This document shows, in pieces, positions 3,394 to 19,051 of a stretch of DNA of 35,749 bases. How positions within the stretch are numbered: position 1 is the stretch's first letter; every line of letters begins with the position of its first letter. Origin of the DNA: a virus. Its lineage: Duplodnaviria > Heunggongvirae > Uroviricota > Caudoviricetes. The notes under the pieces are model-generated. The model saw nothing but the letters and a program-made list of their open reading frames with translations, did no database searches and was not told where the DNA came from. The DNA is taken from IMG/VR virus record IMGVR_UViG_2541047865_000003; one strand, 5' to 3'. Position numbers and translations under genes: made by a program.

Positions 3394-3805
3394 GCCATTC
3401 AATATCTGGCGCACCGGAAGTATCGACCAGTTCCAGTGTGTCCAGATAATCCAGCCACAAATTATATTGCGCCAGTTCCTCACCTTTCAGGCGACCAATC
3501 GCCGCTTTACCAGGCCATTGCTTACTGTTTATGTATTCGTTGACCTGATTAATCAATTGCTGCTTTTCCAGTTCGGCTGCGGCAATTTGTTCCTCATGAG
3601 TTGGCGGTGGAATATCAATCCATGCAGGCATTCCGTCGATGACACCTCTGTATTTTCCTTCTGGTGCTTCCTTCATAAATTCGGCGGCAACAGTGTCGTC
3701 AATTTCGATTCCATCATCGGGCCATTCGCCGGATTCCTGATAAGCGATTTTAAGCTCCACAGGGAAAAACGCATTTTTATCGGCACTGAAAATATATTTC
3801 TGCAT
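3365..3805 (-). CDS. Tail-fibre assembly protein (U-like, currently expressed orientation)
   Basis: 146 aa, C-terminus …DTSGAPDIEWPTPP. Immediately follows the S gene; 3' end converges on and overlaps the U' 3' end. Confidence 0.75.
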   Translation of the reverse strand: MQKYIFSADKNAFFPVELKIAYQESGEWPDDGIEIDDTVAAEFMKEAPEGKYRGVIDGMPAWIDIPPPTHEEQIAAAELEKQQLINQVNEYINSKQWPGKAAIGRLKGEELAQYNLWLDYLDTLELVDTSGAPDIEWPTPPAVQAR

Positions 3806-3807
3806 TT

Positions 3808-4653
3808 CTACCGTCCTATCGAAATATAACTGAATCTGTATTGCTGTGAGATATCACTGGTTGCCACACGCCACGCTGAATTACTGATATGTTCAAAATT
3901 TACAGACAAAACCTGCGGGGCAGGATTCGACGGGTCTGACTGAACGGCATCAGACATAACACTGACTGAAACCATCGGCTGATTAGGGAATGGTATAGGG
4001 AAGTGTCCACTGATAAAGCGGGTCGTGTTTCCTGAAAAAGTGCCAAACTGAACAATATATCCACCTGGTAGCCTGAACCATCCCGAACCAGAAGCGAATG
4101 CTCCCATATCCGGTATCTGATTATCTCCTGTGCCCACATCCCTTTTCGCCGCTTCTCCCAAACCAAGGTTTTGAAGAAAGGCTGCCTTATCGGGAATATC
4201 CGCACCGTTCTGGTCTTTGGCCAGTTTCTCCGCCAGCTTGTTCAGCACTGTGGTCGCAAAGTTCGGATCGTTGCCAAGGGCATCAGCCAGCTCTTTCAGC
4301 GTATCCAGTGTTTCTGGGGCTGTACCTGCAAGCGCAGCAATCGCCCTCGCCACAAATTCTGTCGTCACCAGCTTTTTGCTGTTGTCATTAGCTGCAGGCG
4401 TGGGGGCTGTTGGCGTACCCGTGAATGTTGGGCTGGCCTTCGTCGCATACTGGGTATGCGGGTCGGCCGCTGCGATGTGTTTCGCGAGATCTGAACCGCC
4501 TTTTTCAACCTGCTGTTTCAGGTATGAAGTACGGCTGGCCAGCTGTTTAGCCTGACGGTTAGAAATTCCATCAGGCCCACCCAGTACGGGGTCGGAGACC
4601 TCAATCTGGTAGATGCCGTCTTCCCACTGCGGGGTTTCGGGTAGATTTGCCAT
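3808..4653 (-). CDS. Tail-fibre protein (constant N-terminal part 4180..4653 plus variable part inside the invertible segment)
   Basis: 281 aa with a typical tail-fibre N-terminus (MANLPETPQWEDGIYQIE…) and the hix-encoded NLGLGE junction. Crossover site lies inside the coding sequence at 4154-4179. Confidence 0.85.
   Translation of the reverse strand: MANLPETPQWEDGIYQIEVSDPVLGGPDGISNRQAKQLASRTSYLKQQVEKGGSDLAKHIAAADPHTQYATKASPTFTGTPTAPTPAANDNSKKLVTTEFVARAIAALAGTAPETLDTLKELADALGNDPNFATTVLNKLAEKLAKDQNGADIPDKAAFLQNLGLGEAAKRDVGTGDNQIPDMGAFASGSGWFRLPGGYIVQFGTFSGNTTRFISGHFPIPFPNQPMVSVSVMSDAVQSDPSNPAPQVLSVNFEHISNSAWRVATSDISQQYRFSYISIGR
4154..4179. repeat. gix/hix-like recombination crossover site (copy inside the tail-fibre gene)
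   Basis: TTCTCCCAAACC-AA-GGTTTTGAAGAA. Inverted partner of 2322-2347. Confidence 0.75.
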
Positions 4654-4655
4654 AA

Positions 4656-5240
4656 TTAACTGCTCCCGTGGTTATAGCTGCCGTCATAGTTGACGGTGTT
4701 GTTGTAGCGAATGGCGACAGACTGATACTCCAGGCTCGCCAGATGGCAGCGGGCCGGAGCAAAGGCAGCGAGCGTCTGGCGTAACAGAGCCGCCTGATCG
4801 TTAGTGATGGGCTGTTGAAGGATGACGCGATAGACCGCCCAGGCTTCCGCATCGCCGTGGACAAAAAGCCCGTTATAAGTGTGTTTGCCGTCGTATCCGA
4901 TCTGGCCAGTGCCTTCAATCAGATCCACTTCGCCGAAGCCGAAACGGCGGATAATTTCCCGGATTGACCACGGCGTCCCTTTGTAGCGGTGCAACTCGAT
5001 AGCGGATTTGATAAGCGTGCGACGTACATCGTCTGACTCCGCCAGTTCCCAGCCGTCACCGAACAGCGAGAACTGTTCGCCCAGCCATGGCAGCGCAGAG
5101 CTGTCGACAATATCGACGAGGTAGACCATCAACACGCTCAGGTCGATGCTGTCCAGTCTTCCGGCCAGATTGCCCAGTGCCCTGAAGCTGATATCACCCT
5201 CAAGTGCTGGCGGGAGTTTTAGCGTCTCAGCCATCGACAA
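4656..5240 (-). CDS. Tail protein (P2 gpI-like / Mu gp48-like)
   Basis: 194 aa directly between the baseplate J-like gene and the tail-fibre gene. Call rests on position and size; start uncertain (overlaps upstream gene). Confidence 0.6.
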   Translation of the reverse strand: MSMAETLKLPPALEGDISFRALGNLAGRLDSIDLSVLMVYLVDIVDSSALPWLGEQFSLFGDGWELAESDDVRRTLIKSAIELHRYKGTPWSIREIIRRFGFGEVDLIEGTGQIGYDGKHTYNGLFVHGDAEAWAVYRVILQQPITNDQAALLRQTLAAFAPARCHLASLEYQSVAIRYNNTVNYDGSYNHGSS

Positions 5241-6330
5241 CTCCCGTGATAGTTACGTTGATGGCGGTACAGTTAGCCCACTCATTCTCTGCAAGAACAA
5301 CAAGTTCAAGGCCGGGTAGTTCAACCTGGTAAACACCGCTGACAGTCAACACGGCGTTAATTTGTCCGGGGACGATATCCACACCCAGCTTGGTTCTTCG
5401 GGCTGCAACCCAGTTCTGGATGGCGTTGTTTGCCTCGTCTTTTACCGAGTTTGCATCCTGATTGCGGTAGATGGTGATCTGGGCATCTATGGTGTAATCC
5501 ACCTGCACGGGCGTTTTAGCCCGGACGGTATCAGTGAGCGGCCTGACTTTTTCGCCTGAGCAGAAGCTCTCTACCAGCGTGAGGATGCTGTCGTCCGGCA
5601 GGCCGGTACTGAGCAGTGGATACAGCTCTACGGTGCCCGGAACCGGGGAGAGCACGGCGACGTCAACGATGTTGGGATGGGCCTGCATGGCATGAAAGCG
5701 GTATGCCATACGGCTTCCGGCATTTGTGAAAGACTCCGGGGCCAGTTTGATACGTTCCCGAAGTCTGTCATTGTCTTCCTGCTCTGAACCGCCAGAGCTG
5801 GCTGCCAGATTGGTTACCTGCAGGTCGACGTTATCAATCTCATCGAGCAACTGACTGACCTGCGCAGGTTGCCAGTCGTTGCCAGCGGCTCCTGGTTCGG
5901 TACAGGTGGCCGTGGCATTGACCAGCAGCAATCCGGCTTTCAGTACCACGTCCGTATCGGTGGCAAAAATAATGCTGTCGGAAGCGCTGACACGGGTACC
6001 TGCCGGGATCAGCACATCAATGGCCAGTTCCTCATCCACGGAGAACTGGAGCGTGGTGGTAGCAGGCTGCGCGGCAAGGCGGTACACACCAACCAGTTCA
6101 CCGAGGTAGTCAATCATCGGCTCACGGGCAAAGGCGACCAGATTCTGTTTGGCCGCTTCCTGCGCCGCCACCCTGACCAGCATTTCACGGTATGCCCACA
6201 GGTCAATCAGCAGGCGCTCAGCCTGAGCGGGGTACAGCGTTTTGCCGGTTGCAGCTTCGTACTGTGCAATCATTTCTGCCGTGATTTTGTCGGCATCACG
6301 TTCAATAAAGTCGGGTTCTGTCAGCGCCAT
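5227..6330 (-). CDS. Baseplate J-like protein (Mu gp47 / P2 gpJ family)
   Basis: 367 aa, positioned between the gpW-like and gpI-like genes. Overlapping stop/start couples it to neighbours. Confidence 0.75.
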   Translation of the reverse strand: MALTEPDFIERDADKITAEMIAQYEAATGKTLYPAQAERLLIDLWAYREMLVRVAAQEAAKQNLVAFAREPMIDYLGELVGVYRLAAQPATTTLQFSVDEELAIDVLIPAGTRVSASDSIIFATDTDVVLKAGLLLVNATATCTEPGAAGNDWQPAQVSQLLDEIDNVDLQVTNLAASSGGSEQEDNDRLRERIKLAPESFTNAGSRMAYRFHAMQAHPNIVDVAVLSPVPGTVELYPLLSTGLPDDSILTLVESFCSGEKVRPLTDTVRAKTPVQVDYTIDAQITIYRNQDANSVKDEANNAIQNWVAARRTKLGVDIVPGQINAVLTVSGVYQVELPGLELVVLAENEWANCTAINVTITGVVDG

Positions 6331-6668
6331 AGCAGCTCCTGAGTCCGGGTCTGTCCTTCAGAGCCTTTCCAGCTCACCCGGAGCGTAAGATGTTCGCCGT
6401 CGACGGCGGGTTTAACCGACATCAGCTGGCAGCGAGGCTCCCAGCGGCGGATGGCATCGACGGATTCGCGCACCACATGCGGGATAGCCCGGTCGATGGG
6501 CCAGTCGATATAAAGATGCAGATTGCTGCCGAACTCCGGGCGATGCGGGTCGCTGCCGCGAGGAGTTCGCAGGATGATTTGAATGGCCTGCCAGATATCA
6601 TCCAGCCCCCGGACGATTTCGCCGGGGGCCTGCAGTGCCGGTTGCCAGAATACTGAGGTTGTTTTCAT
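6321..6668 (-). CDS. Baseplate wedge protein (GPW/gp25-like)
   Basis: 115 aa, size and position typical of gpW/gp25 between spike and J genes. Confidence 0.7.
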   Translation of the reverse strand: MKTTSVFWQPALQAPGEIVRGLDDIWQAIQIILRTPRGSDPHRPEFGSNLHLYIDWPIDRAIPHVVRESVDAIRRWEPRCQLMSVKPAVDGEHLTLRVSWKGSEGQTRTQELLWR

Positions 6669-6722
6669 GGGGGCAGTATTGCCCCTGTGCGGGAACGCCG
6701 ATATTAAAGGCGTTTAAGAAGG

Positions 6723-7235
6723 TCAGTGGGAATGGTGATTGGAGTTCTGGCCGTCAGACAGCATGCTGCCTGTGGAGTGGGCATTGCCGTTGATTTCAAG
6801 GTTACCGTTCACCGTGGTGGTATCAGCGGTCAAATCAATGGTTTTCCCCTTCAGGCTGATACCTACCGCAACCTCGATCACCACATGCTCGATACCTCCT
6901 TTGACCGTCAGCGTATGGGTCGCGCGGTTATAGCTGAACTCTGCGCCATCCGCGTATTTCGTGCCCCGGACGTTTTTGTCGCTGAACGGCGGTTTATCGA
7001 CTTCTGAGTACACCGCGCCCAGAATGACACCATCCTCGCCGTTGGCATCGAGCAGCACCTCAACCTGCTCCCCCACGTCAGGGAGCCAGTAATCCTTGTT
7101 ATCCTGGGTATTGCGCTGTAGCACGTTAAGCCAGTTAGTGCGCAGGTTATCGCACTCAGGCAAACGAACGCGGGCCTGAACCTTGTCGGCATCGACGGCG
7201 CTGACCGTACCGACCTGACGGGTGACGCCTGCCAT
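6723..7235 (-). CDS. Baseplate spike / assembly protein V-like
   Basis: 170 aa after the gpD-like gene. His-rich C-terminal tip (NSNHHSH) as seen in metal-binding spike apexes. Confidence 0.65.
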   Translation of the reverse strand: MAGVTRQVGTVSAVDADKVQARVRLPECDNLRTNWLNVLQRNTQDNKDYWLPDVGEQVEVLLDANGEDGVILGAVYSEVDKPPFSDKNVRGTKYADGAEFSYNRATHTLTVKGGIEHVVIEVAVGISLKGKTIDLTADTTTVNGNLEINGNAHSTGSMLSDGQNSNHHSH

Positions 7236-8607: not shown

Positions 8608-9488
8608 ACACTCCTCGCCAGAATTTTGGCTGCCATGGTGCTTAACCCCGGCGACATACGGGTGAAGGTGGTGCTGGCGGAGTTAAGCTGCCCGGAAACG
8701 GCATCCAGCGCCGCTGCGATATTGCTGCCGTCCACGCCGCTCAGTGAAGACTGTGCCTGTTGTACATACGTGGCCGCATCACTGGTGGCTCTGGCCAGAC
8801 TGATGGCATCAGGCATGGATTCAGAAAGCGCATTAAATGCCGGAACGCTTTGACCCAACGCCCCGGACACGTTGCCCAGCCCGCTCATCAACCCCGGTAC
8901 GCGGGTCAGTGCAACGGCGGGGTTATCCTTCATTTTCTGCGCCACCCGAACGGCACTGATGGTGGTCTGGAGAACAGACTGCGCCTGTTTGGCGTAGTTG
9001 ACGCCGTCGCGGACGTACTGCGCTACCCCGGAAGGTGAAGGAACGGCACCGGAGACCGCCCCGACGCCGGGAACCTGCGTGCGTATTGCGGGTGGCTGTA
9101 GCGGGTTTTTCGGGTCGCCGATGTACTCCCGGAGAGACGCGGTGGCATTGACGGCCAGCACGTTGCCGGTGCTGTCGGTCTGCTCGCTGGTCGCAGTAAC
9201 ATCGGTAATCACGAACCAGCCGCGATAGTCACCGTTGCCGAAGACCAGCGCCAGCGCTTGATGGGCCTTCATGGCCGTTCGCAGTCTCGCCAGCTCCACG
9301 TCGGGCACACAATAGTGCTGATGGAAGACCAGGCTTATCTGGATTTCGTCCAGCTTATCGCCAACGAACTGCAGGCCGGGCTTACCCTCGATACGGGGAT
9401 GCTCCGCATAATCGACGCCGAACGTGACCTCGAAGCCGTCCCAGTAGGTAATCAGTTCAAACTCAATATCACCCAATACTGCAAACAT
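8604..9488 (-). CDS. Tail protein (P2 gpU-like / Mu N-like DNA-circularisation protein)
   Basis: 294 aa with a gpU-like N-terminus (MFAVLGDIEFEL…), immediately downstream of the tape measure gene. Confidence 0.6.
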   Translation of the reverse strand: MFAVLGDIEFELITYWDGFEVTFGVDYAEHPRIEGKPGLQFVGDKLDEIQISLVFHQHYCVPDVELARLRTAMKAHQALALVFGNGDYRGWFVITDVTATSEQTDSTGNVLAVNATASLREYIGDPKNPLQPPAIRTQVPGVGAVSGAVPSPSGVAQYVRDGVNYAKQAQSVLQTTISAVRVAQKMKDNPAVALTRVPGLMSGLGNVSGALGQSVPAFNALSESMPDAISLARATSDAATYVQQAQSSLSGVDGSNIAAALDAVSGQLNSASTTFTRMSPGLSTMAAKILARSV

Positions 9489-11953
9489 CAGCTGTACCTC
9501 CTGCGTTGTTGCTGAGCCAGCAGACGCTCCAGCATTTTCTCCAGCTCATGCAGGCTCATATTCAGTACGCCGGTCAACCCGTCAGGCGCTGCGGTTTCTT
9601 TGCCATTGAGGAAAAACTGAGGATTAAAGCTGACCTGGATACCGCCAGATGTTCCGCTGCCAGTTGCAGCTGCGCCACGACCTGAATATCCCGCCGCCAT
9701 GATTTCCGGCGACGGGATACGGGGAACATCCGGTGTCATTTCAGTGGCCAGACGCTGCCCGGCCAGTGCAGCAAGTGGTGTGGTGCGCTGCAGGCCGATA
9801 GCTGCTCCCTGCGCGATGTTGTCACCAAAGCCTATAAACACGCGGCTCGGCGAATGAATGCCCAGCTTTTCCTTGAACCAACCGCCGACGCTGTCGCCCA
9901 TATCTGTGACGGTGGTTTTGAGCGACTCCCATTTGTTTTTGATGCCGTTAATCAGGCCGTCGATAAGATGGCCACCGAAGTCGGTGAACTTCGCTGGCAG
10001 ATCAACACCGAGGTATTTCAGCGCAGCCGCAAAGGCTTTATAGAGCAGACCAACCGGCGACCAGTTAATCAGCAGCTTACCAATCCCCACGACACCGCCA
10101 TTAAACGCCTCTTTAATGTCAGCCCAGCGCTGTTTAAACCAGCTACTGACTGCGCCCCAGTTGCGATAAATAAGGTAAGCTGCTGCCGCGACGGCGGTGA
10201 TGGCGAGACCAATGGGATTCATCAGCAGCGCCCGGCCAATCCAGAGAACGGCCCGCCCGGCGATCATAATGCCGCGAACCAGCCCACCTGACAGCACACC
10301 ACCCAGTGTTCTGGCTCCTCTGGCGACGGCGCTGAAGCCGGTCACCAGCCAGCGGAGCTTACCGCCTTCACCGAGTGCAAGCGACAGTCGAAGCCAGTTG
10401 GCCCGCAGTAAAACGGCATTTTTCCAGACGTTAACAAAGGGGGAAATAAGGAGATTCAGCCCCAGCTTGAGACCGATAGTGGCCATCTTGAAAGCGAGTA
10501 ATGCTCCTACAACCTTTATGGTGCCGCTGACGATTTGCGGGTTTGCCGCTATCCATTTGCCGACACTGTCCATTAAAGGAATAAAAGTCTCACCCAGTTG
10601 GATCAAGGCCGGGCGTAGTGACTCACCAATGCTGATGGCTGCCTCGTTAAAACCAATCTGAGTTCTGCGCCAACGACCTTCGAGCGTATTATTTTGTTTT
10701 GCAGCATCCTTATCCAGCGTAGACATTGCTGACGGGGTATTCATTTCCTGCTTGCTGGAAAGGTATTTATCCCAGCCCTGACGCATTGACAGTAAATGGT
10801 TAACGGTCTGAATATCAGTGAAGACTTCTGCCAGACCAAATGACTCCATTAGCTTCTGCTGGCCTTCCTGATCGCCTCTTGAGCCTGCTGCTTTCCATTG
10901 CTGTAAAAACGCCTTACCTTTACCGTCGATAAAACGGTTGGCAATCATCAGTGAGGCTTCATACTGTGAGAAGCCCTGAGCGACGTAATTCTGCATTGAC
11001 CCCTGGTAATCCACCCCGGCTTTAGCATATTTCTGGATGGTATCTCCGCGCCCCATCGCCGCCAGCCAGTTTGACATATTGGTGACGGCCTCTTCCGCTG
11101 AGCCGCTGCCTTTACCAACTTCCAGACTGGCGACGATCTGGGTAATCGCATCTTTTCCATAAATACCACGAGCAGCGAAGGCTTTAGCCATACCGGGTAA
11201 TGCTTTTGCCATATCCTTCAGCTCAAATGACCCAAGTTTGGCTCCTGTTGCCGCAATACCAAATGCCTGTTCAAGTTCTTTCGCATCAGTGATTCTGAGT
11301 GCATCGCTGAAGGCATAAGTCATTTTGGCAAGGTCGGTCATATCGGCTTTGGTTGCTGTAGCGGTCTTTCCAAGCATCTCTGCAAACGTTGCTGCCCGTT
11401 CGGGGGCCATACCATCAGCAACTAATTGTCCGACTCCCCCTAACAGAGACTCCTGCAGTTGGTTAACCTTCAGCGAGGCCTGTCTGATAGCCAGGCCAAT
11501 TGCACGTTCCTGCCTTGAATCCAGATCACCAGTGACACTGATATCCCGCAACTGCGATTCAAACGAGGCATATTGTTTGACTGAGGCCATGACCGGTGCA
11601 CCCAGTGTTCTGACGATGGCATAGGTTTCTGCTCCCTGGCCATAGAGCGCCATGCGGTTAGCTTTCAGCGCGTCACTGGTGGTTGATACTGCTGACAAAC
11701 GGCGCTGCTGGCGCTCAATTTGCTCCATTGTGCGGCTTACCCGCAGCAGGTCGCTGTTGAGGCGCTGCATCCGGGAAGAACCCAACTGACCATAGCGTTC
11801 TGTTGCACGGGTTAAGGCGTTTTGGCGTTCCTGCAGGCGGCGCGATGTATCGCCCAGGGAATCAAGGGCGCGTCGGGTACCGCTGACGGCTGAGCGGAAG
11901 CTACTCCCGACAATGCCGCCAATAATGACGCCGACTGAAAATTCACTGGCCAC
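9488..11953 (-). CDS. Tail tape measure protein
   Basis: 821 aa; long helical N-terminal region, Gly/Ala-rich hydrophobic central segments; located after the chaperone pair. Confidence 0.85.
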   Translation of the reverse strand: MASEFSVGVIIGGIVGSSFRSAVSGTRRALDSLGDTSRRLQERQNALTRATERYGQLGSSRMQRLNSDLLRVSRTMEQIERQQRRLSAVSTTSDALKANRMALYGQGAETYAIVRTLGAPVMASVKQYASFESQLRDISVTGDLDSRQERAIGLAIRQASLKVNQLQESLLGGVGQLVADGMAPERAATFAEMLGKTATATKADMTDLAKMTYAFSDALRITDAKELEQAFGIAATGAKLGSFELKDMAKALPGMAKAFAARGIYGKDAITQIVASLEVGKGSGSAEEAVTNMSNWLAAMGRGDTIQKYAKAGVDYQGSMQNYVAQGFSQYEASLMIANRFIDGKGKAFLQQWKAAGSRGDQEGQQKLMESFGLAEVFTDIQTVNHLLSMRQGWDKYLSSKQEMNTPSAMSTLDKDAAKQNNTLEGRWRRTQIGFNEAAISIGESLRPALIQLGETFIPLMDSVGKWIAANPQIVSGTIKVVGALLAFKMATIGLKLGLNLLISPFVNVWKNAVLLRANWLRLSLALGEGGKLRWLVTGFSAVARGARTLGGVLSGGLVRGIMIAGRAVLWIGRALLMNPIGLAITAVAAAAYLIYRNWGAVSSWFKQRWADIKEAFNGGVVGIGKLLINWSPVGLLYKAFAAALKYLGVDLPAKFTDFGGHLIDGLINGIKNKWESLKTTVTDMGDSVGGWFKEKLGIHSPSRVFIGFGDNIAQGAAIGLQRTTPLAALAGQRLATEMTPDVPRIPSPEIMAAGYSGRGAAATGSGTSGGIQVSFNPQFFLNGKETAAPDGLTGVLNMSLHELEKMLERLLAQQQRRRYS

Positions 11954-12148
11954 GGTGGTTATCCTCTGAAAGCGGAAAAACGGAAGGAAAATGTCTGAGA
12001 GCCATGCAGAACAGCCGCGAGTAGCGGCTGTTAAGTGATGAGGAGTTAATGATTATCGCCGAACTCGCTTCTGATTTGCACTTCAGCCTGCTCCAGCCAC
12101 ATCTCCAGATCGTCAGTATCGAGGGCATCAATCTCCCCCGGCTGAAAT

Positions 12149-12463
12149 CTAAACCACCTCGCCAGCAGCCCCTGCGCCTGCATCAGCGTTTTCGTCGCTC
12201 TTGCCCAGCCCAGTGACTTGCTGAAATCGTTTCTGCAGCTCCATGTAGTCGGCAAGATCCATATTATCGAGGTCTTCCGGAAGAATACCGGTGCTACGGG
12301 CAATCAGCGGCTCGTCCCAGTCAGCCGGGTCTTTACTGATTTTGCGCACCTGCTTCAGGTCTTTGACCGTCAGGCGTTTCAGTTCAACCTGCTCAACTCT
12401 GGTGCCAGCAGCGGTGGTGAAGGGGTAAGACAGCTTAAAAGTATCGGATTGGGTTTGTGACAT
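12149..12463 (-). CDS. Tail assembly chaperone (gpE-like); overlapping frame 12046..12303 is the likely frameshift-extended form (E+E'-like)
   Basis: 104 aa upstream of the tape measure. A second frame overlapping its 3' end stays open to 12046 and encodes an E'-like tail (…DTDDLEMWLEQAEVQIRSEFGD). RBS CAGGAG before the ATG. Confidence 0.6.
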   Translation of the reverse strand: MSQTQSDTFKLSYPFTTAAGTRVEQVELKRLTVKDLKQVRKISKDPADWDEPLIARSTGILPEDLDNMDLADYMELQKRFQQVTGLGKSDENADAGAGAAGEVV

Positions 12464-12527
12464 GATCGTGCTCCTGTGTAAGTTCAGAGCAGTATGTCTG
12501 GTGGTGGGACTGGCAGATATTAAAGGG

Positions 12528-12554
12528 GATTAAGAAGAAAGGGGCCGAAGCCCC
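12528..12554 (-). terminator. Rho-independent terminator inside the tail gene cluster
   Basis: Minus-strand GGGGC-TTCG-GCCCC hairpin (at ~12541-12554) followed by TTTCTTCTT, just downstream of the 93-aa ORF stop. Confidence 0.55.
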
Positions 12555-12561
12555 TGTGATA

Positions 12562-12843
12562 TCAGTGAGTGCGAAAGCCTTTGCAGTTACGCAGGAAGGC
12601 GATAAGAAGTACCTTTCCTTCAGATTTGCCGATGCCGGTGAACCAGTGGTCAGGTGGCTCCCATGCCTCAATCAGGTCAGCGAGCTTTCGTGCTTTGGAG
12701 CGTGTGCAGTCAATCGGGTCATTGGTTTTCTGGGTATTAAAAAGGTTTTCCACCCCTGAAATATCAAGGATGGTAAACCACGTACCATTCCCCATGCCAA
12801 TCGAACCACAGTTCCCGCCTTTATCTTCAATCTCGACGGTCAC
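12562..12843 (-). CDS. Hypothetical protein (93 aa) between tail tube and chaperone genes
   Basis: GTG start 2 nt after the tube stop with a GGGGG RBS; followed by its own terminator; no recognisable motif; locally lower GC. Confidence 0.45.
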   Translation of the reverse strand: MTVEIEDKGGNCGSIGMGNGTWFTILDISGVENLFNTQKTNDPIDCTRSKARKLADLIEAWEPPDHWFTGIGKSEGKVLLIAFLRNCKGFRTH

Positions 12844-12845
12844 CG

Positions 12846-13367
12846 TCAGCCCCCGATGTTGATGCGGTAGTCGGTCAACTGGTCAATGCCGCCGACGCGG
12901 AAGATGTTGGCCAGATAGTCCAGCTCCAGCAACTCTTCACCATCCAGTACCTGCTTGATGTACGTGCAGGTGAAGCTACTGGAGAACTCGGCGTTCTCAT
13001 GCTGTTTGAACGTCCCCAGCGGGTTCTTCTTAAACATGATCGTCAGGAAAGTGACCAGCGGAATTTCGTCAATCAGCCCCTGCGAGCTGTAGCGCTGAAC
13101 GCTGGAACGGCACTGCAGCGCCAGCGACTTATACGGGTTCGCGGCAGACAGCATCGCGTCGCGGTAAAAGCTGTTCCACTTGATCTCGCCCTCAAGCTTG
13201 TCGAAGCCAGCAGGGAGTTCCACCTTGCCCACCATCCCCAGCGCCTTATGCTCCTGCATGGTCATGGAGACGTCAGGCAGTTTGACCTCCTCGGCCCGGC
13301 CCAGCAGGTTAGCGCCATCCAGGTAGATGTTGGCATTCGTGATGCGGTTGATCTCAATCTTTGCCAT
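12846..13367 (-). CDS. Tail tube protein
   Basis: 173 aa directly after the sheath gene with 1-nt stop/start overlap; size and position as for Mu M / P2 FII. Confidence 0.8.
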   Translation of the reverse strand: MAKIEINRITNANIYLDGANLLGRAEEVKLPDVSMTMQEHKALGMVGKVELPAGFDKLEGEIKWNSFYRDAMLSAANPYKSLALQCRSSVQRYSSQGLIDEIPLVTFLTIMFKKNPLGTFKQHENAEFSSSFTCTYIKQVLDGEELLELDYLANIFRVGGIDQLTDYRINIGG

Positions 13368-14794
13368 CAGCTATTCCCCTTCAGGGTTAACAGGTATTCC
13401 GAGGTGATCTCGGTCTCAAACGTCAGTCGCTCCAGCGGCGGTGGCGGCGTGTATTTGTAGCTCAGCAACAGATGACCGGCGGCCAGCTCCATCTCTTCAT
13501 TACGGGCCGGATCAAACCAGCAACTGAAGCCCAGCAGTGCACCGTCGCCAATCAGCTTGCGACCGTAGGCGTTGACCGACTCCGTCAGCGCATCAATCAG
13601 TGCCTGGGTAATCGGCATGTCGATGTACTGCTGGCTGAAATAACGCAGGGACTCGTTGATAACATCACCGGTGCGGCGAACGTTCTCAAAGTTGCGCATA
13701 TGGGTGACCGTTGGCCATGCTGCCGTCCGGTTGCCCCACAGACGCAGGCCGCTGCCGTAGCTGCTGAAGACCGTAGTGATGCCCTGTTCGTTGAGCAGGT
13801 TCACCTCGCTCTGCGGGTCATCAATCATTGCCGACAGCTGGCGCTCCACGCCGGTGATACCCAGAATCTCCTGGTTGGAGGACGACCACCAGTAGCCCTT
13901 GTCCAGGTCGACCTTGGCACGCAGACCTGCAGCACGCTGGCTCAGCGGCTCCAGCCGTTCGCTGTTGGTGGCCGCGTCGTACACCTTGACGTGCGGATAG
14001 CACAGACGGACGCGGTCGGAGCTGGTATTGAAGTTAATGGTGCCTTCCGGGCCACGCCCCGCCAGAGCCTGCGCAAAAGTGGTACCAATCGGCGCGTCGA
14101 TGTAGGTCACCGCGCCCAGCTTCTCAGCCATGGCGATAAGCTCAACCGAGACGCTGTTCTGGGTGCAGAATACCGGGGCAATCAGAATTTTGGCGAAGTA
14201 GCCAAACAGGTTGAAGCTGTCGTTAAGCAACTTCATGCCGGTACGGTTGCCTGCCGCGTTAACGGTACCGATGATATCAGCCGGGGTGACTTTGGTCGGA
14301 TCGGCATAGTTATAGCTGGCCTTCACCGTTGCATCTGCAGCAATGCTTTTACCAAGATTAGTAATCACCCCGGTCTGCGCATCAAGCGAGTAGTCCTGAC
14401 CTTCCACATAAGGCTGACCGTCGCTGTCCGGTTTCAGTACCAGCTGCGCGATCACCGGATTAGCCAGCTGTGCCTTGCCCGTCGCCTTGTCGAATGTTAC
14501 GTCTTCATCGGCCACAGCGGTTTTATGCACAGCCGGATCAAGCACGTTAATGACCAGAACGGTGCCTGCCCCATGGTCGTAGATCGCATCCAGTGCCTGC
14601 GGAATGGTAAAGCCAGTGAGCTGGCTGCCAAACGCCGCTGCATCTTTCTCAGACAGGCACTGCACCAGCGTATTGACGTCTCCCATTGGGGCGGTACCAA
14701 TCAGGCCAATGACGGCGGATTTCACCGTTTTAACCGGGCGGGCACCGTTTTCCACCTCAATGGTTTCGACGCCATGCAGATAGTTAGCTGACAT
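13367..14794 (-). CDS. Contractile tail sheath protein
   Basis: 475 aa with a typical sheath N-terminus (MSANYLHGVETIEV…IGLIGTAP). Confidence 0.85.
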   Translation of the reverse strand: MSANYLHGVETIEVENGARPVKTVKSAVIGLIGTAPMGDVNTLVQCLSEKDAAAFGSQLTGFTIPQALDAIYDHGAGTVLVINVLDPAVHKTAVADEDVTFDKATGKAQLANPVIAQLVLKPDSDGQPYVEGQDYSLDAQTGVITNLGKSIAADATVKASYNYADPTKVTPADIIGTVNAAGNRTGMKLLNDSFNLFGYFAKILIAPVFCTQNSVSVELIAMAEKLGAVTYIDAPIGTTFAQALAGRGPEGTINFNTSSDRVRLCYPHVKVYDAATNSERLEPLSQRAAGLRAKVDLDKGYWWSSSNQEILGITGVERQLSAMIDDPQSEVNLLNEQGITTVFSSYGSGLRLWGNRTAAWPTVTHMRNFENVRRTGDVINESLRYFSQQYIDMPITQALIDALTESVNAYGRKLIGDGALLGFSCWFDPARNEEMELAAGHLLLSYKYTPPPPLERLTFETEITSEYLLTLKGNS

Positions 14795-15038
14795 GGGAGT
14801 CCTCCGTTTTCACATCGCTGTCGCCGCCGTTCCTGCGCTTTGGTGACTGCACAGCCGGTATGCTGGCGGGTTTAGTCTCTTCAGATACCGGCGTCAGATG
14901 CTTCAGCGCCACCAGTACCTTCACATAGTCATGCTCCTCGGGCAGGGAAACATTCTTCCCCGGCCAGAGCAGGATTTCGGTTCCGTCCGACAGCGTGACG
15001 CCGCTGGCCGGGCCGGAATAGCGGTATTCTTTCATCAC
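14784..15038 (-). CDS. Hypothetical protein (84 aa)
   Basis: Small ORF coupled by ATGA overlap to the upstream gene, immediately before the sheath gene. Confidence 0.45.
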   Translation of the reverse strand: MMKEYRYSGPASGVTLSDGTEILLWPGKNVSLPEEHDYVKVLVALKHLTPVSEETKPASIPAVQSPKRRNGGDSDVKTEDSHVS

Positions 15039-15499
15039 TCGCTTTCCTCATAGTTCACTTCGGTTAACAGCGGGCCGGACGGTAAATCGCTGTCTTCGAT
15101 AAAGACGCTTTCGGTTGCGAAGTCGAGAGCGTACTGCCACAGCCCCTTGGCCTCACCGATAAACACCTCACGGGTCAGCCAGATACGGCGGCGGCAGTTC
15201 GGCGGGGTGTAGCCGCCGAGTATGCGGCGGACTGCATCCAGAACGTCAATCGCACCTCTTTTACCGTTGAGCTGGCGGAAGACCACCGTGACGCAGAGCT
15301 GGATAGTCTGAGGCTGGATCACCGCACCAATATCATCGGGTTTGTCGAAGCGTGAACCGGCATAGCTCAGCAGCAACGCCCCGACAGGATGATTCAGACG
15401 GTATTCGGACGGCTTTTCCGGGAAGTACTCCACCTGCAGCTGGGGCAGCTTCTCGCGCAACCGGGCCAGCACAGCATCGAGGACGGGCAGAACGTTCAT
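15035..15499 (-). CDS. Head-tail joining region protein (Mu gp37-like)
   Basis: 154 aa, positional equivalent in Mu-type head modules. Confidence 0.55.
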   Translation of the reverse strand: MNVLPVLDAVLARLREKLPQLQVEYFPEKPSEYRLNHPVGALLLSYAGSRFDKPDDIGAVIQPQTIQLCVTVVFRQLNGKRGAIDVLDAVRRILGGYTPPNCRRRIWLTREVFIGEAKGLWQYALDFATESVFIEDSDLPSGPLLTEVNYEESE

Positions 15500-15945
15500 C
15501 AGTATTTCTCCAGTAAGCCGTCGCGCCCGCCAAAGGTGGGGCGACGTGCCCGCGCCCGGATTTCACCGGACTCAGGTACGTCTTTTTGAGTGGACTGCAG
15601 CCCCAGCGTCAGCTTCCCGTCGCGGATAGCCTCAAGCTGACGCCGGGCCTCTTTGTTGTCGTCTTTGACGGTGTCAGGCAGATCACCTTCAGGACGACGG
15701 ACATACAGGCGGTAACGCACCAGCGTGATGGCAATATCCCGCAGAACGGTAGGCACTTCTGCCAGCGGCAGGGTATAGCGGCCACGAAGGTGCGCATCAA
15801 TCAACTCCCCGGCGTAGCGAACACAGCTGTCCACAACCGTCACATTCACCGTGGCAGGGGTGTCGAAATCCACGACCTCGTTAGTGAGCTGAATCAGCGT
15901 TGACTCAGGCACTTGTTCCTGTAAATCCGCCAGGGTGCAGTACAT
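15499..15945 (-). CDS. Mu gp36-like protein
   Basis: Start taken at MYCTLADLQE… 1 nt after the upstream stop; positional equivalent of Mu gp36. Confidence 0.55.
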   Translation of the reverse strand: MYCTLADLQEQVPESTLIQLTNEVVDFDTPATVNVTVVDSCVRYAGELIDAHLRGRYTLPLAEVPTVLRDIAITLVRYRLYVRRPEGDLPDTVKDDNKEARRQLEAIRDGKLTLGLQSTQKDVPESGEIRARARRPTFGGRDGLLEKY

Positions 15946-15946
15946 G

Positions 15947-16303
15947 TCACACCCCGCGCAGGATGCGGATAACATCGCCTTTGGCCAGTGCTTCATCCAG
16001 CGCAATCCCGGCTGAAATACCTGCCGGGGTGTCGCCTGATGCTGCTGTCTGGGGAACGGCGCAGGCATTTGCATCCGACTGAACGTTCAGCCCCCTGGCA
16101 ATCGCGGCACCGGCCTCGACGGCAACAATGCCCAGTACGTTGACCGGGGTTACATCACCGGCTGCGGCATCCACCTCTGCCACGCCGAGCGCGACGGCTC
16201 CGGCCTGACAGGGGGCGTTATCGGCACCGACAAAGCGCTGTTGCGTCAGCGCCGCACTGGCCGTCACGGTAGTGGTCAGAATGACCTGCTGTGTTGTACC
16301 CAT
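15947..16303 (-). CDS. Hypothetical head protein (Ala/Gly/Val-rich, 118 aa)
   Basis: Directly downstream of the major head gene; compositional bias typical of head decoration/cement proteins. Confidence 0.45.
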   Translation of the reverse strand: MGTTQQVILTTTVTASAALTQQRFVGADNAPCQAGAVALGVAEVDAAAGDVTPVNVLGIVAVEAGAAIARGLNVQSDANACAVPQTAASGDTPAGISAGIALDEALAKGDVIRILRGV

Positions 16304-16313
16304 GACCGTCTCC

Positions 16314-17267
16314 TTATTTCACGATGTTGGTGACGAGATACCCGGCATCGCCACCGACCACGGCGACTTTGTAGATATCGGTATAACGGCAGTACTTCAC
16401 CTTGCCGCCGACGCCGTCGTATTTATCCGCCACCGGCATCCCTTTACGGCGCAGGGTGTAGCCGAAGGACGGCTCGTTTTCGTCGGCGCTGTCGGTGCCC
16501 GGCTGGGGTTTGCCGACGTAATGCAGCATCAGGTTGTCGCCCCAGATATCAGCCGGGACTTTGTCCTTGTTCTGCGCGTCTTTCATGGAGGCCATAGAGA
16601 CCGGCTCGCCGATCACCACATCTTCCAACTGGAAAAGGTCTTTCAGAATTTCGATGGTGATACGCTTGCGCTCGTTGGCTCCAATCGCGGCCTGAATCGC
16701 CGGGTGGAACTTCAGCAGCGACATGACGCTGGCCCCCATGGTCATCAGGTTTGGGCGCAGGCCGGTTTTGTTACGTACCGCCTCAATGCCACCTTCAATG
16801 ATGCCAATTGGATCACCTTTACCACCGACCCAGCGTTCAGCAGCTGCCAGTGCTTTAACGGACGATGCCGGGTAAACGTTTTTGTCCTGCGCCAGACGGG
16901 CCGCATACAGTTCGCGCTTCAGGTTGACGCCACTGGTCACGCGACGAATGGCCTTGGCCTCTTCGTTGAACATCGACTCCGCCTGCTCGCGGTAGTCCAC
17001 CGGCGCGGCCAGATCGTGCTCGTTAAGAACCAGATCCAGTTTGCCGGTCTTCTCACGTACCAGGACGTTACTGTCAGCCCCCACGGCACGCTCGGTGTCG
17101 TACTCAACAAAGGCGGATTTACCGAAGGTCGGGACGGTCACACCTTCCTTATCGGTCTGGACAATGGGGAAGATGCGTTCGCCGATAAATGCGGCATTTT
17201 TATAACCGCGAGCGATGCTGGTCAGCACCGGGTCAACAACGCGCTTACCCTTTAAATAGTCAGACAT
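16314..17267 (-). CDS. Major head subunit (Mu T-like)
   Basis: 317 aa, N-terminus MSDYLKGKRVVDPVLTSIARGYKN…; follows the protease/scaffold gene. Confidence 0.85.
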   Translation of the reverse strand: MSDYLKGKRVVDPVLTSIARGYKNAAFIGERIFPIVQTDKEGVTVPTFGKSAFVEYDTERAVGADSNVLVREKTGKLDLVLNEHDLAAPVDYREQAESMFNEEAKAIRRVTSGVNLKRELYAARLAQDKNVYPASSVKALAAAERWVGGKGDPIGIIEGGIEAVRNKTGLRPNLMTMGASVMSLLKFHPAIQAAIGANERKRITIEILKDLFQLEDVVIGEPVSMASMKDAQNKDKVPADIWGDNLMLHYVGKPQPGTDSADENEPSFGYTLRRKGMPVADKYDGVGGKVKYCRYTDIYKVAVVGGDAGYLVTNIVK

Positions 17268-17280
17268 GTTCTCTCCTTAA

Positions 17281-18378
17281 TTACAGGCAGCGGGAGACAG
17301 CAGCGTCGTAGCTGATGCCTTCTTTTTTCGACAGTTCCAGCGCTTTCTGATGCAGCGCCAGACGTTCCGGGTCGGCTTCAGCGAACTCTGCTGACGTCGT
17401 TTTGATCTCCGTGTTCACGCGGTCTTTGGTCGCGTGCTCACTGAAATTCAGTACCGGCTCAGTGCTGTCCAGCAGCGTCTTAAACGCCGTGGCCAGAGGG
17501 GTGCGGATATCGCCTTCGGCAAACTCAACCGGCTTGTCGCCTGCAGAGACCGCGTCCAGAATGGCCACGACAACCGACTTCGCTTTAGGAGCCAGTCGGC
17601 CATCGCCAACCAGCTTCTCGGCAAAGGAGACGTTGTCCGCGTGCAGTTTGTCCTGCTTAGCCTTCGCTTCCTGTTCCGCCCGCTGGGTGGCTTCCGCTTT
17701 CAGACGCGTGTTTTCCGCCTGAAGCGCTTTGATTTCTTCTTCAGTCATGGTGCTGTTCTCTTTTTGAGGGGTGGGATTGTGTTCACTGAAGTCCGGTTCA
17801 GACTTCCCGGTGTCGCGGTAAGCCTCTTCACGCAGGGAGTCCACCTGCCATGAAGGAAGCACCTTGTCGGTCTCGTCCAGCCCGAACTGGGCGATCAGAA
17901 AATCGCGCAGACGGCCCCATAAAGAGGCATTGGTGATATCACTCCAGTCGGCAAACTCCACGACGCCTTCTTCTTTCTCACCAAACGAAACCTGCTTAAG
18001 CCCCTTAATGGACGGTGGCTGCGCCCCCAGAAAGCCGACATGACGCAGGTAAAGCGTGCCGGGCTTCGGGTTGTTCGGTGAGTCCGGGAGATAGAACGAG
18101 GCTGAGACCTTCTTGAAGCGCCCGTTGCCCACCAGTTCGGCAAACTGCGGGTCGAGCTGGTCAGGCTCAGCCAGCAGATCGCCGCCGTTAAGCGACAGGG
18201 ATTTCACCCAGCCCCACGCCGGGTCTTCCGTTTTGGGGTGGCCAATAACGAGTGGTGCTTCATGGACGGACGGGTCATAGGCTTTCACGCAGGCGGCAAG
18301 ATCGCTTTGCGTGAACGGCAGTTTCGTGCCGTGCATATCGGTATGAGTACCGGCTTTAAAAATGTGAATGGCTGGCAT
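17281..18378 (-). CDS. Head maturation protease / scaffold (Mu I-like)
   Basis: 365 aa, N-terminal protease-like region (MPAIHIFKAGTHTD…) and a charged, helical C-terminal scaffold-like region (EEEIKALQAENTRLKAEATQRAEQEAKAK…). Confidence 0.8.
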   Translation of the reverse strand: MPAIHIFKAGTHTDMHGTKLPFTQSDLAACVKAYDPSVHEAPLVIGHPKTEDPAWGWVKSLSLNGGDLLAEPDQLDPQFAELVGNGRFKKVSASFYLPDSPNNPKPGTLYLRHVGFLGAQPPSIKGLKQVSFGEKEEGVVEFADWSDITNASLWGRLRDFLIAQFGLDETDKVLPSWQVDSLREEAYRDTGKSEPDFSEHNPTPQKENSTMTEEEIKALQAENTRLKAEATQRAEQEAKAKQDKLHADNVSFAEKLVGDGRLAPKAKSVVVAILDAVSAGDKPVEFAEGDIRTPLATAFKTLLDSTEPVLNFSEHATKDRVNTEIKTTSAEFAEADPERLALHQKALELSKKEGISYDAAVSRCL

Positions 18379-18592
18379 TTTGCTGTCCCGCGTTACGTTG
18401 TCGGGGACAGTCTGTGGAAAAAGCGTCAGCAGCGCTTTTAATCTGCTTTAGAAAAAATCGGGGGTATCAGTACGGGGAATGTCACGCTGCGGGCGAATAG
18501 TGGTGCAAAGCGGGGGCTGTAAAGCCTTTATAAAGGTAATACAGCCCCTCAGCGGCTGGCAATGATAAATCACCCGCCTGCAGAGACAAAAC

Positions 18593-19051
18593 TCAGCGAC
18601 GGGCCGCTGCTTCAAGATGGCGGACAATCGTATCGAGGATAGGGACAACCACTTCAGGCTGCAGCTCACCGTCCCCCGTCAGCGGCAGGAACGGACGGGC
18701 AGGAAGTTCAACGGACTCATTACGCCCCGTTTTACCCCCAAACTGGTGAATCGGCCCATAAACGACATTAGTGCCAACCGCTGCCTGCCGGTCGTCATGG
18801 TCGGTTGATACCGACCCCATCAGACGCCCGGTATCCTGCAGCGTTTGCCCGTCGCGCTCCTGCGCTGCCAGCGAGGGAGTCCACCCCGGACGCCCCTCAT
18901 CGAGAAAGTTAAACTGCGTTTCCGCCAGCAGGGTTCCGGCGATTTTGCGCATCGCGGGTTCCAGGTCTGTGGCAGCAAGATCCAGCGCACGGAGGCTCCG
19001 GCGCAGGGATTCATCGTTAATGGTGACATTGACCAGGTTATCGGAAGCCAT
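18593..19051 (-). CDS. Virion morphogenesis protein (Mu G-like)
   Basis: Start at MASDNLVNVTIND… with a GAGG RBS, 2 nt after the F stop. The upstream extension in the track overlaps F and is not used. Confidence 0.65.
   Translation of the reverse strand: MASDNLVNVTINDESLRRSLRALDLAATDLEPAMRKIAGTLLAETQFNFLDEGRPGWTPSLAAQERDGQTLQDTGRLMGSVSTDHDDRQAAVGTNVVYGPIHQFGGKTGRNESVELPARPFLPLTGDGELQPEVVVPILDTIVRHLEAAARR

Follow-up and report, generated by a model that had tools for sequence, protein, structure and literature searches.

The tail module and its additional gene

The DNA analyzed here (the window) is a stretch of 35,749 nucleotides (nt) from the virus record IMGVR_UViG_2541047865_000003, and the element under study is a gene for a protein of 93 amino acids (aa) located in the tail module, between the tail tube gene and the gene of the gpE-like tail assembly chaperone. 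Coordinates are window positions, the late genes are on the minus strand, and genes were called by Pfam and PHROG scans (Table 1). Matches to other records indicate that the window is a BcepMu-type transposable (Mu-like) Escherichia coli prophage with a P2-type tail. In fact, the 1,211-nt stretch 12150-13360 has a 100% match in the chromosome of E. coli CFS3292, and the 1,401-nt stretch 12000-13400 matches the phage records Phi06_2974 B (100%), Klebsiella phage KP12 (96%), and PhiKM (87%), the last of which is classified as Bcepmuvirus. The tube protein is 68% identical to gp40 of BcepMu. The tail module of that phage (gp39 sheath, gp40 tube, gp41-43 chaperone, gp44 tape measure) has in common with the window the gene order and a terminator with a UUCG loop after the tube gene, whereas a non-coding gap of 121 nt is found where the window prophage has the 93-aa gene.

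The 93-aa open reading frame (ORF) has the features of a real, conserved gene. Its GTG start lies 2 nt past the tube stop, as the original prediction stated, and the exact spacer is CG. A GGGGG run resembling a Shine-Dalgarno sequence (12850-12854) is located 6 nt upstream of the GTG, within the last codons of the tube gene. Homologues begin with M-[TS]-V-x-[IL]-x-D-K, aligned to residue 1 of the 93-aa protein. Moreover, the ratio of nonsynonymous to synonymous substitution rates (dN/dS) is 0.03-0.21 in the 11 of 12 same-site orthologues for which it is computable (synonymous sites are saturated in the twelfth, from locus L017), which means purifying selection where the gene is intact. An antisense ORF of 97 aa (12569-12862, plus strand) was discarded as a shadow ORF because the substitutions obey the minus-strand frame.

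Regarding composition, a lower GC content than that of the neighbours had been claimed for this region. The difference exists (0.50, against 0.57 in the tube gene and 0.55 in the window) but it is mild, at the 18th percentile of 282-nt windows. The codon positions give a stronger signal, since the GC content at third positions (GC3) is 0.55 in the 93-aa gene versus 0.82 in the tube gene, which is consistent with a foreign origin. A sigma-70-like promoter was sought on the minus strand near 12843-13100, in or near the 3' end of the tube gene, and none was found, although a weak or non-canonical one inside the tube gene could still be present.

Table 1. Features of the tail module in the window and cargo genes at the equivalent site of related loci (L numbers denote loci of relatives)
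Feature	Locus	Position	Strand	Remarks
Sheath gene	Window	13367-14794	minus	Pfam/PHROG scans
Tail tube gene, 173 aa, P2 FII type	Window	12846-13367	minus	PF04985 Phage_tube, E 4.8e-54; TGA stop 12846-12848
93-aa accessory gene, DUF7739 / phrog_1239 family	Window	12562-12843	minus	GTG start at 12843-12841
Intrinsic terminator, AGGGGC-UUCG-GCCCCU then UUCUUCUUAA	Window	12530-12555	minus	Consensus scan and conservation in relatives
44-nt promoter-like motif, TTAATCCCCTTTAATAT-N20-CATACTG	Window	12490-12533	minus	Between terminator and chaperone gene
Tail assembly chaperone gene, gpE-like, 104 aa	Window	12149-12463	minus	PF10109 Phage_TAC_7, E 7e-23; first gene past the putative hotspot
Chaperone frameshift extension ORF	Window	12046-12303	minus	
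Tape measure gene, 821 aa	Window	9488-11953	minus	
Second motif copy, TTAAACGCCTTTAATAT-N20-AATACTG	Window	6674-6717	minus	Intergenic, between ORFs 6723-7235 and 6321-6668; upstream of next tail/baseplate gene block
Gp49 / Sf6-gp66 family gene (PF13876)	L006, L007, L010, L013, L016; L081	about 3519-3818; 2184-2477 (L081)		Upstream of DUF7739 gene; carriers include an E. coli prophage in plasmid form
66-aa ORF	Pectobacterium, Symbiopectobacterium			
Ferredoxin-fold protein gene, 109-110 aa	L042, L044, L046, L048, L050, L052 (six Pectobacterium spp.)	about 3540-3872		2Fe-2S match PF00111, 22 bits
CdiA-CT RNase A-type toxin gene (PF18431) and CdiI_2 immunity gene	L060, Neisseriaceae bacterium TC5R-5	3596-4843		
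PAAR-domain gene and three further ORFs	L058, Chromobacterium sphagni	about 770-2904	opposite	
319-aa ORF and 72-aa ORF, look of a split insertion sequence transposase	L013, Pantoea stewartii	about 4132-5317		Between DUF7739 gene and terminator; judged by appearance, no profile search

The encoded protein and the DUF7739 family

The original prediction saw no recognizable motif in the ORF, but its product has a full-length match to phrog_1239 (E 7e-45), a family of "unknown function" in PHROGs. With the Pfam family DUF7739 (PF24881) it scores 19.1 bits against a gathering cut-off of 27 bits. In an alignment of 29 sequences, it aligns over its full length with DUF7739 proteins of the Sf6 gp22 type at 41-52% identity, and 13 columns are invariant (T21, W22, L26, I28, A51, K53, L57, P63, P64, F83, C87, G89, and F90). 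Three homologues that are 82-84% identical to the 93-aa protein (P0007, P0012, and P0018) carry a precomputed PF24881 match, and tblastn of the protein to Sf6, HK75, and CUS-3 gives E values of about 1e-11. Considering the score below the cut-off, the protein seems to represent a divergent subfamily of DUF7739.

This family is small, with 82 clusters at 50% identity among 1.8 billion representatives. Its members consist of one domain with a length of about 90-100 aa, and the Sf6 gene 22 protein and other members share with the 93-aa protein the length class of 93-99 aa. Domain fusions were considered as hints of function and set aside, since in the longer proteins gene calling or assembly has joined neighbouring genes (lambda P, DUF2737, YopX, tube), or the match is a spurious one of low complexity. 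In the database protein P0133 (132 aa), the last 67 residues of a tube protein are fused to an N-terminal portion of a DUF7739 protein, probably through an indel or an error of assembly where TGA-CG-GTG joins the two genes.

The proteins of the family are soluble and near-neutral to basic (isoelectric point 6.1 for the 93-aa protein, family median 8.4). The AlphaFold2 model is a compact α/β fold of four short strands and three helices, with a predicted local distance difference test score (pLDDT) of 87 and a predicted template modelling score (pTM) of 0.79. The product is predicted to be a soluble α/β protein, small and near-neutral, that lacks a catalytic signature. The PADLOC and NCBIfam profile libraries, queried with three family members, returned 0 families at E ≤ 1, and no sequence similarity of the 93-aa protein to any protein of known function was found. 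The best fold match is the DNA mimic DMP12 from Neisseria (PDB 3w1o), with 8% identity and a Foldseek E value of 0.26. A role as a DNA mimic of this type was rejected because DUF7739 proteins are not acidic.

The terminator and the adjacent motif as parts of the phage backbone

The hairpin AGGGGC-TTCG-GCCCCT, followed by TTCTTCTTAA (12555-12530), is located 5 nt past the TGA of the 93-aa ORF. A GGGGC-TTCG-GCCCC terminator had been proposed after the ORF, and it is indeed present, followed by a U-run and then by the chaperone gene. With 6 pairs, 5 of them G-C, and a 4-nt loop, it tops the table of terminator-like sites in a scan of 9000-19000. The count of such sites in this range (13, versus 10.1 ± 3.2 in shuffles) is not significant alone, and the overall stability of the 81 nt surrounding the hairpin is unremarkable (z -0.69), so the case for a terminator rests on its form and its conservation.

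An equivalent hairpin with a T-run is found directly after the tube gene in loci without the 93-aa gene (L014, L018, L020, L031-34, and L043-51). These empty sites include Erwinia tracheiphila (L014, with a tube protein 97% identical and a 131-nt spacer), Xenorhabdus (L018 and L020), Brenneria, and several Pectobacterium, and the gap of BcepMu holds GGCCCGC-UUCG-GCGGGCC-U6 and no gene. The multiple alignment puts the 93-aa gene exactly between the tube stop and the pre-existing hairpin. The original prediction regarded the gene and the terminator as inserted together. As the same hairpin is kept at gene-free sites and in BcepMu, the second half of that claim must be dropped: the terminator is an ancestral operon boundary of the phage backbone, and the insert consists of the 93-aa gene only.

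The conserved motif of 44 nt next to the terminator has the general form TTAA-N3-CCTTTAATAT-N20-[CA]ATACTG, with exactly two copies in the window, both of them in intergenic DNA immediately upstream of blocks of tail genes; 200 shuffles gave 0 matches. About 20 related loci, some with an insert and some lacking one, carry it at an unchanged length, and its ends are conserved while its middle is variable. The empty sites of Erwinia and Brenneria match TTAATCCCCTTTAATAT-N20-CATACTG...AGGAG-ATG, and those of Xenorhabdus and Pectobacterium show recognizable variants ending in GATACTG. The late promoters of Mu are C-dependent. By analogy with them, the motif is probably a late activator-dependent promoter of this phage group, which would restart transcription for the chaperone, the tape measure, and the genes beyond.

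Distribution and decay of the gene among relatives

The sample comprised 74 tail modules that have a related tube gene, with a single genome representing each species, and the tube and chaperone genes were located in every module. The interval between these two genes ranges from 16 to 2,229 nt. A recognizable copy of the 93-aa gene is present in 23 of the 74 loci (15 full-length, 1 with a premature stop, 2 interrupted or partial, and 5 truncated at the 5' end). About 45 loci have no such gene, and it is also absent from BcepMu and phiE255, which agrees with the original view of this ORF as an addition to the canonical order of tube, chaperone, and tape measure. It is even missing from relatives whose tube proteins are 89-97% identical.

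Decayed copies were found in several lineages. Codons 1-44 are lost in five species of Photorhabdus (L022, L024, L025, L027, and L029), a premature stop is found at codon 61 in Mixta mediterraneensis (L005), and the gene is interrupted in Apirhabdus (L016). All these loci still show the flanking tube (93-100% identity) and chaperone (55-100% identity). Truncated and interrupted copies beside retained tube and chaperone genes argue that the 93-aa gene is dispensable for the tail. The anatomy of the locus and its evolutionary history are well supported, the insertion boundaries, coding status, family membership, and distribution being direct observations. As for abundance, the tail module is carried by 642 of 5,426 complete E. 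coli genomes (about 12%), including a strain of sequence type 131 among the matches listed.

The comparison of these loci suggests that the spacer from the tube stop to the terminator is a variable cargo hotspot of BcepMu-type prophages, with several kinds of genes in different relatives (Table 1). In the loci carrying Gp49, the DUF7739 gene starts with ATG and overlaps the end of the Gp49 gene; phage Sf6 has a member of each of these two families, which here share one slot as adjacent cargo. The ferredoxin-like cargo of Pectobacterium has Ser or Asp in place of the usual cluster cysteines (PYSSRAGADPSS) and looks like a cluster-less ferredoxin-like protein. In L013, the ORFs resembling an insertion sequence stretch the interval to 1,970 nt. 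Homology of DUF7739 to other cargo (CdiI_2 and the 66-aa ORF of Pectobacterium) was considered, and none was found.

The CdiA-CT/CdiI pair in the slot of the Neisseriaceae relative speaks for a reading of the 93-aa protein as an orphan immunity-type protein, neutralizing by direct binding a toxin of contact-dependent inhibition (CDI), of type VI secretion systems (T6SS) or of colicin type, or an abortive-infection effector. A weak fold similarity points the same way. However, the fold matches have 7-8% sequence identity, hhalign gives a probability of 0.1% versus the CdiI_2 of the slot, and a toxin partner is adjacent in none of the contexts examined, which makes this function highly doubtful.

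DUF7739 genes in other phages

In Sf6, HK75, vB_Ecl_MII_001, and metagenomic lambdoid prophages, the DUF7739 gene is located in the early-left operon, with recombination genes (Erf/RecT, SSB, RdgC, Abc2) to one side, xis/int to the other, and Ea-type and Lar-type accessory genes around. In EPP-1 it lies in the early region, flanked by the repressor gene and the integrase gene, and it is also found in about 105 phage-plasmids similar to pHCM2/SSU5. Unlike the Sf6-type members from lambdoid or P22-like phages, the gene in the window belongs to the late tail operon of a Mu-like myovirus. In lysogens the early-left operon transcribed from PL of lambda is kept repressed, and it is expressed during lytic growth. 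The DUF7739 gene adjoins an ead/Ea22-like gene in Sf6 (L002, 3432-4413) and in E. coli phage-plasmids (H127-H132), which are unrelated types of replicon, and this neighbourhood is not seen in the Mu-like context.

The original prediction also considered an unknown tail-associated protein. In a wider form, the product could be a virion or tail-associated protein (minor structural, involved in assembly, or co-injected) made with the tube. Its gene is packed against the tube gene, so it would be made during virion assembly, and gp123 of Yersinia phage fHe-Yen8-01, a homologue 37% identical, is labelled "particle associated protein" and adjoins other proteins with that label, a DNA methyltransferase and an ADP-ribosyltransferase. 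Nevertheless, the literature search retrieved no paper on which this label is based. Moreover, the gene is absent from BcepMu and from relatives with closely similar tubes, it is truncated or interrupted beside kept tail genes, and its homologues lie in early operons of podoviruses and siphoviruses, and in phage-plasmids. The short-tailed P22-like phages Sf6 (gp22) and CUS-3 and the siphovirus HK75 carry them far from structural genes, and since Sf6 and CUS-3 are short-tailed, a role specific to the tube or the sheath is not credible. Neither a conserved presence and position in the tail module, across the 74 loci, nor a restriction to structural operons, across the other phage contexts, was found. 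A virion or tail-associated protein is thus very improbable. The same literature search gave no papers for DUF7739, phrog_1239, or fHe-Yen8-01 and nothing relevant for Sf6 gp22, and the literature on PhiKM and BcepMu contained nothing concerning the 93-aa gene.

Expression and possible role of the 93-aa protein

Altogether, the gene is probably, though by no means surely, a DUF7739 passenger in the cargo slot that encodes a late lytic accessory protein and not a part of the tail. The evidence favours in this respect the other option of the original prediction, a late-expressed accessory gene, with late co-expression inferred from the packing against the tube gene. The late genes through sheath and tube would end at the conserved terminator, and the promoter-like motif would then serve the chaperone and tape-measure block. 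The sheath-tube message would have the 93-aa gene as its last cistron, and translation of this gene would be coupled to that of the tube or re-initiated at the GTG. Since no promoter of its own was detected, its start lies 2 nt past the tube stop, and a run resembling a ribosome-binding site precedes it, its product would most likely be made late in lytic growth.

Regarding the molecular role, which is read from context only, the usual home of the family in early-left operons silent in lysogens, together with Abc2 and Lar-type genes, points to the lytic cycle. The product may be a cytoplasmic protein that binds a macromolecule of the host, or of a competitor, during lytic development, in a role of host-takeover or counter-defence type.

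Several observations weigh against a late lytic passenger. In 634 of the 642 E. coli carriers the match spans 80% or more of the query, a coverage that cannot be reached without some part of the gene, so the gene behaves almost like a fixed one in that lineage. A counter-defence protein made only late would be unusual, unless it acts on the progeny or is packaged, and the annotation of gp123 in fHe-Yen8-01 leaves room for a link to the virion. Furthermore, a sequence search of PDB and Foldseek searches of PDB and BFVD were empty or non-significant and give no function, and neither an experiment nor an annotated homologue assigns one to the DUF7739 family.

A more speculative version, for which the odds seem rather poor, is that DUF7739 is a new phage family of counter-defence or host takeover. 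The placement as last cistron would then provide a bulk late supply, either to blunt a host sensor of late structural proteins or to be carried in the virion into the next cell. The "particle associated" label of the fHe-Yen8-01 protein would fit the second option.

Comparison with morons

Classical morons have a promoter and a terminator of their own and are expressed in the lysogen as autonomous units. Precedents for a moron that benefits the lysogen are gp15 of HK97 and Tab of JBD26, an 83-aa protein encoded in the late operon of a Mu-like Pseudomonas phage (PMC10884400). Like HK97 gp15 and JBD26 Tab, the gene in the window is a small one of foreign composition, an addition to a conserved structural operon, with a sporadic distribution and a terminator behind it. 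Unlike classical morons, it has no detectable promoter, its start abuts the tube stop, and its terminator belongs to the backbone and was not acquired with it. Sporadic presence and atypical composition are therefore the moron features found here. The gene is moron-like accessory cargo in a phage structural operon, of a kind that is ordinary for phage genomes.

The layout, a small protein inserted in a Mu-like late operon with a terminator after it, is of the same class as that of Tab (PMC10884400), and could be taken for a moron that benefits the lysogen, expressed from the prophage and protecting the host by superinfection exclusion or by blocking the assembly of an invader. The bacterial-warfare cargo in the slot of relatives (CdiA-CT/CdiI and PAAR) and the near fixation of the gene among E. 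coli carriers would suit such a function. However, no upstream promoter-like site was found for a gene that starts right after the tube stop, and the ancestral terminator means that there is no self-contained transcription unit. Moreover, the family is mostly located in the PL early-left operon, repressed in lysogens, which suggests a role in the lytic cycle, and a PADLOC match is absent. Protection of the lysogen is hence considered improbable, and the late lytic passenger is preferred.

Other observations on the prophage and its relatives

The genes upstream of the tail module include Mu gp27, BcepMu Gp37, and an SLT lysis gene. An E. coli record 96% identical bears the RefSeq labels "phage tail assembly protein" and "GpE family phage tail protein". 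Rfam families and tRNAs were searched in the window and none were found. The KP12 record (L001, OM835952.1, clone KP12_2) is filed under Vequintavirinae, yet it is a 35-kb genome of BcepMu type; a prophage that was induced, or isolated along with a lytic phage, has likely been deposited here under the latter's name. An actinobacterial assembly, "Arthrobacter sp. GMC3" (L015, NZ_PJIO01000028.1), also contains a tail module of enterobacterial BcepMu type with a tube protein 96% identical, on a contig of 8.2 kb with a coverage of about 7, and this module is probably contamination.

Significance for BcepMu-type prophages

The 93-aa protein is a very common "hypothetical protein" of E. coli for which a confident predicted fold is now available. 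Its placement as a passenger rather than as a tail component means that the questions of expression timing, defence, and interaction partners matter more than tail assembly. The slot, with its terminator-promoter junction, is a landmark for finding accessory genes in BcepMu-type prophages, and the spacer may be a cargo hotspot of general occurrence, not described before, in which further genes of this sort could be sought.
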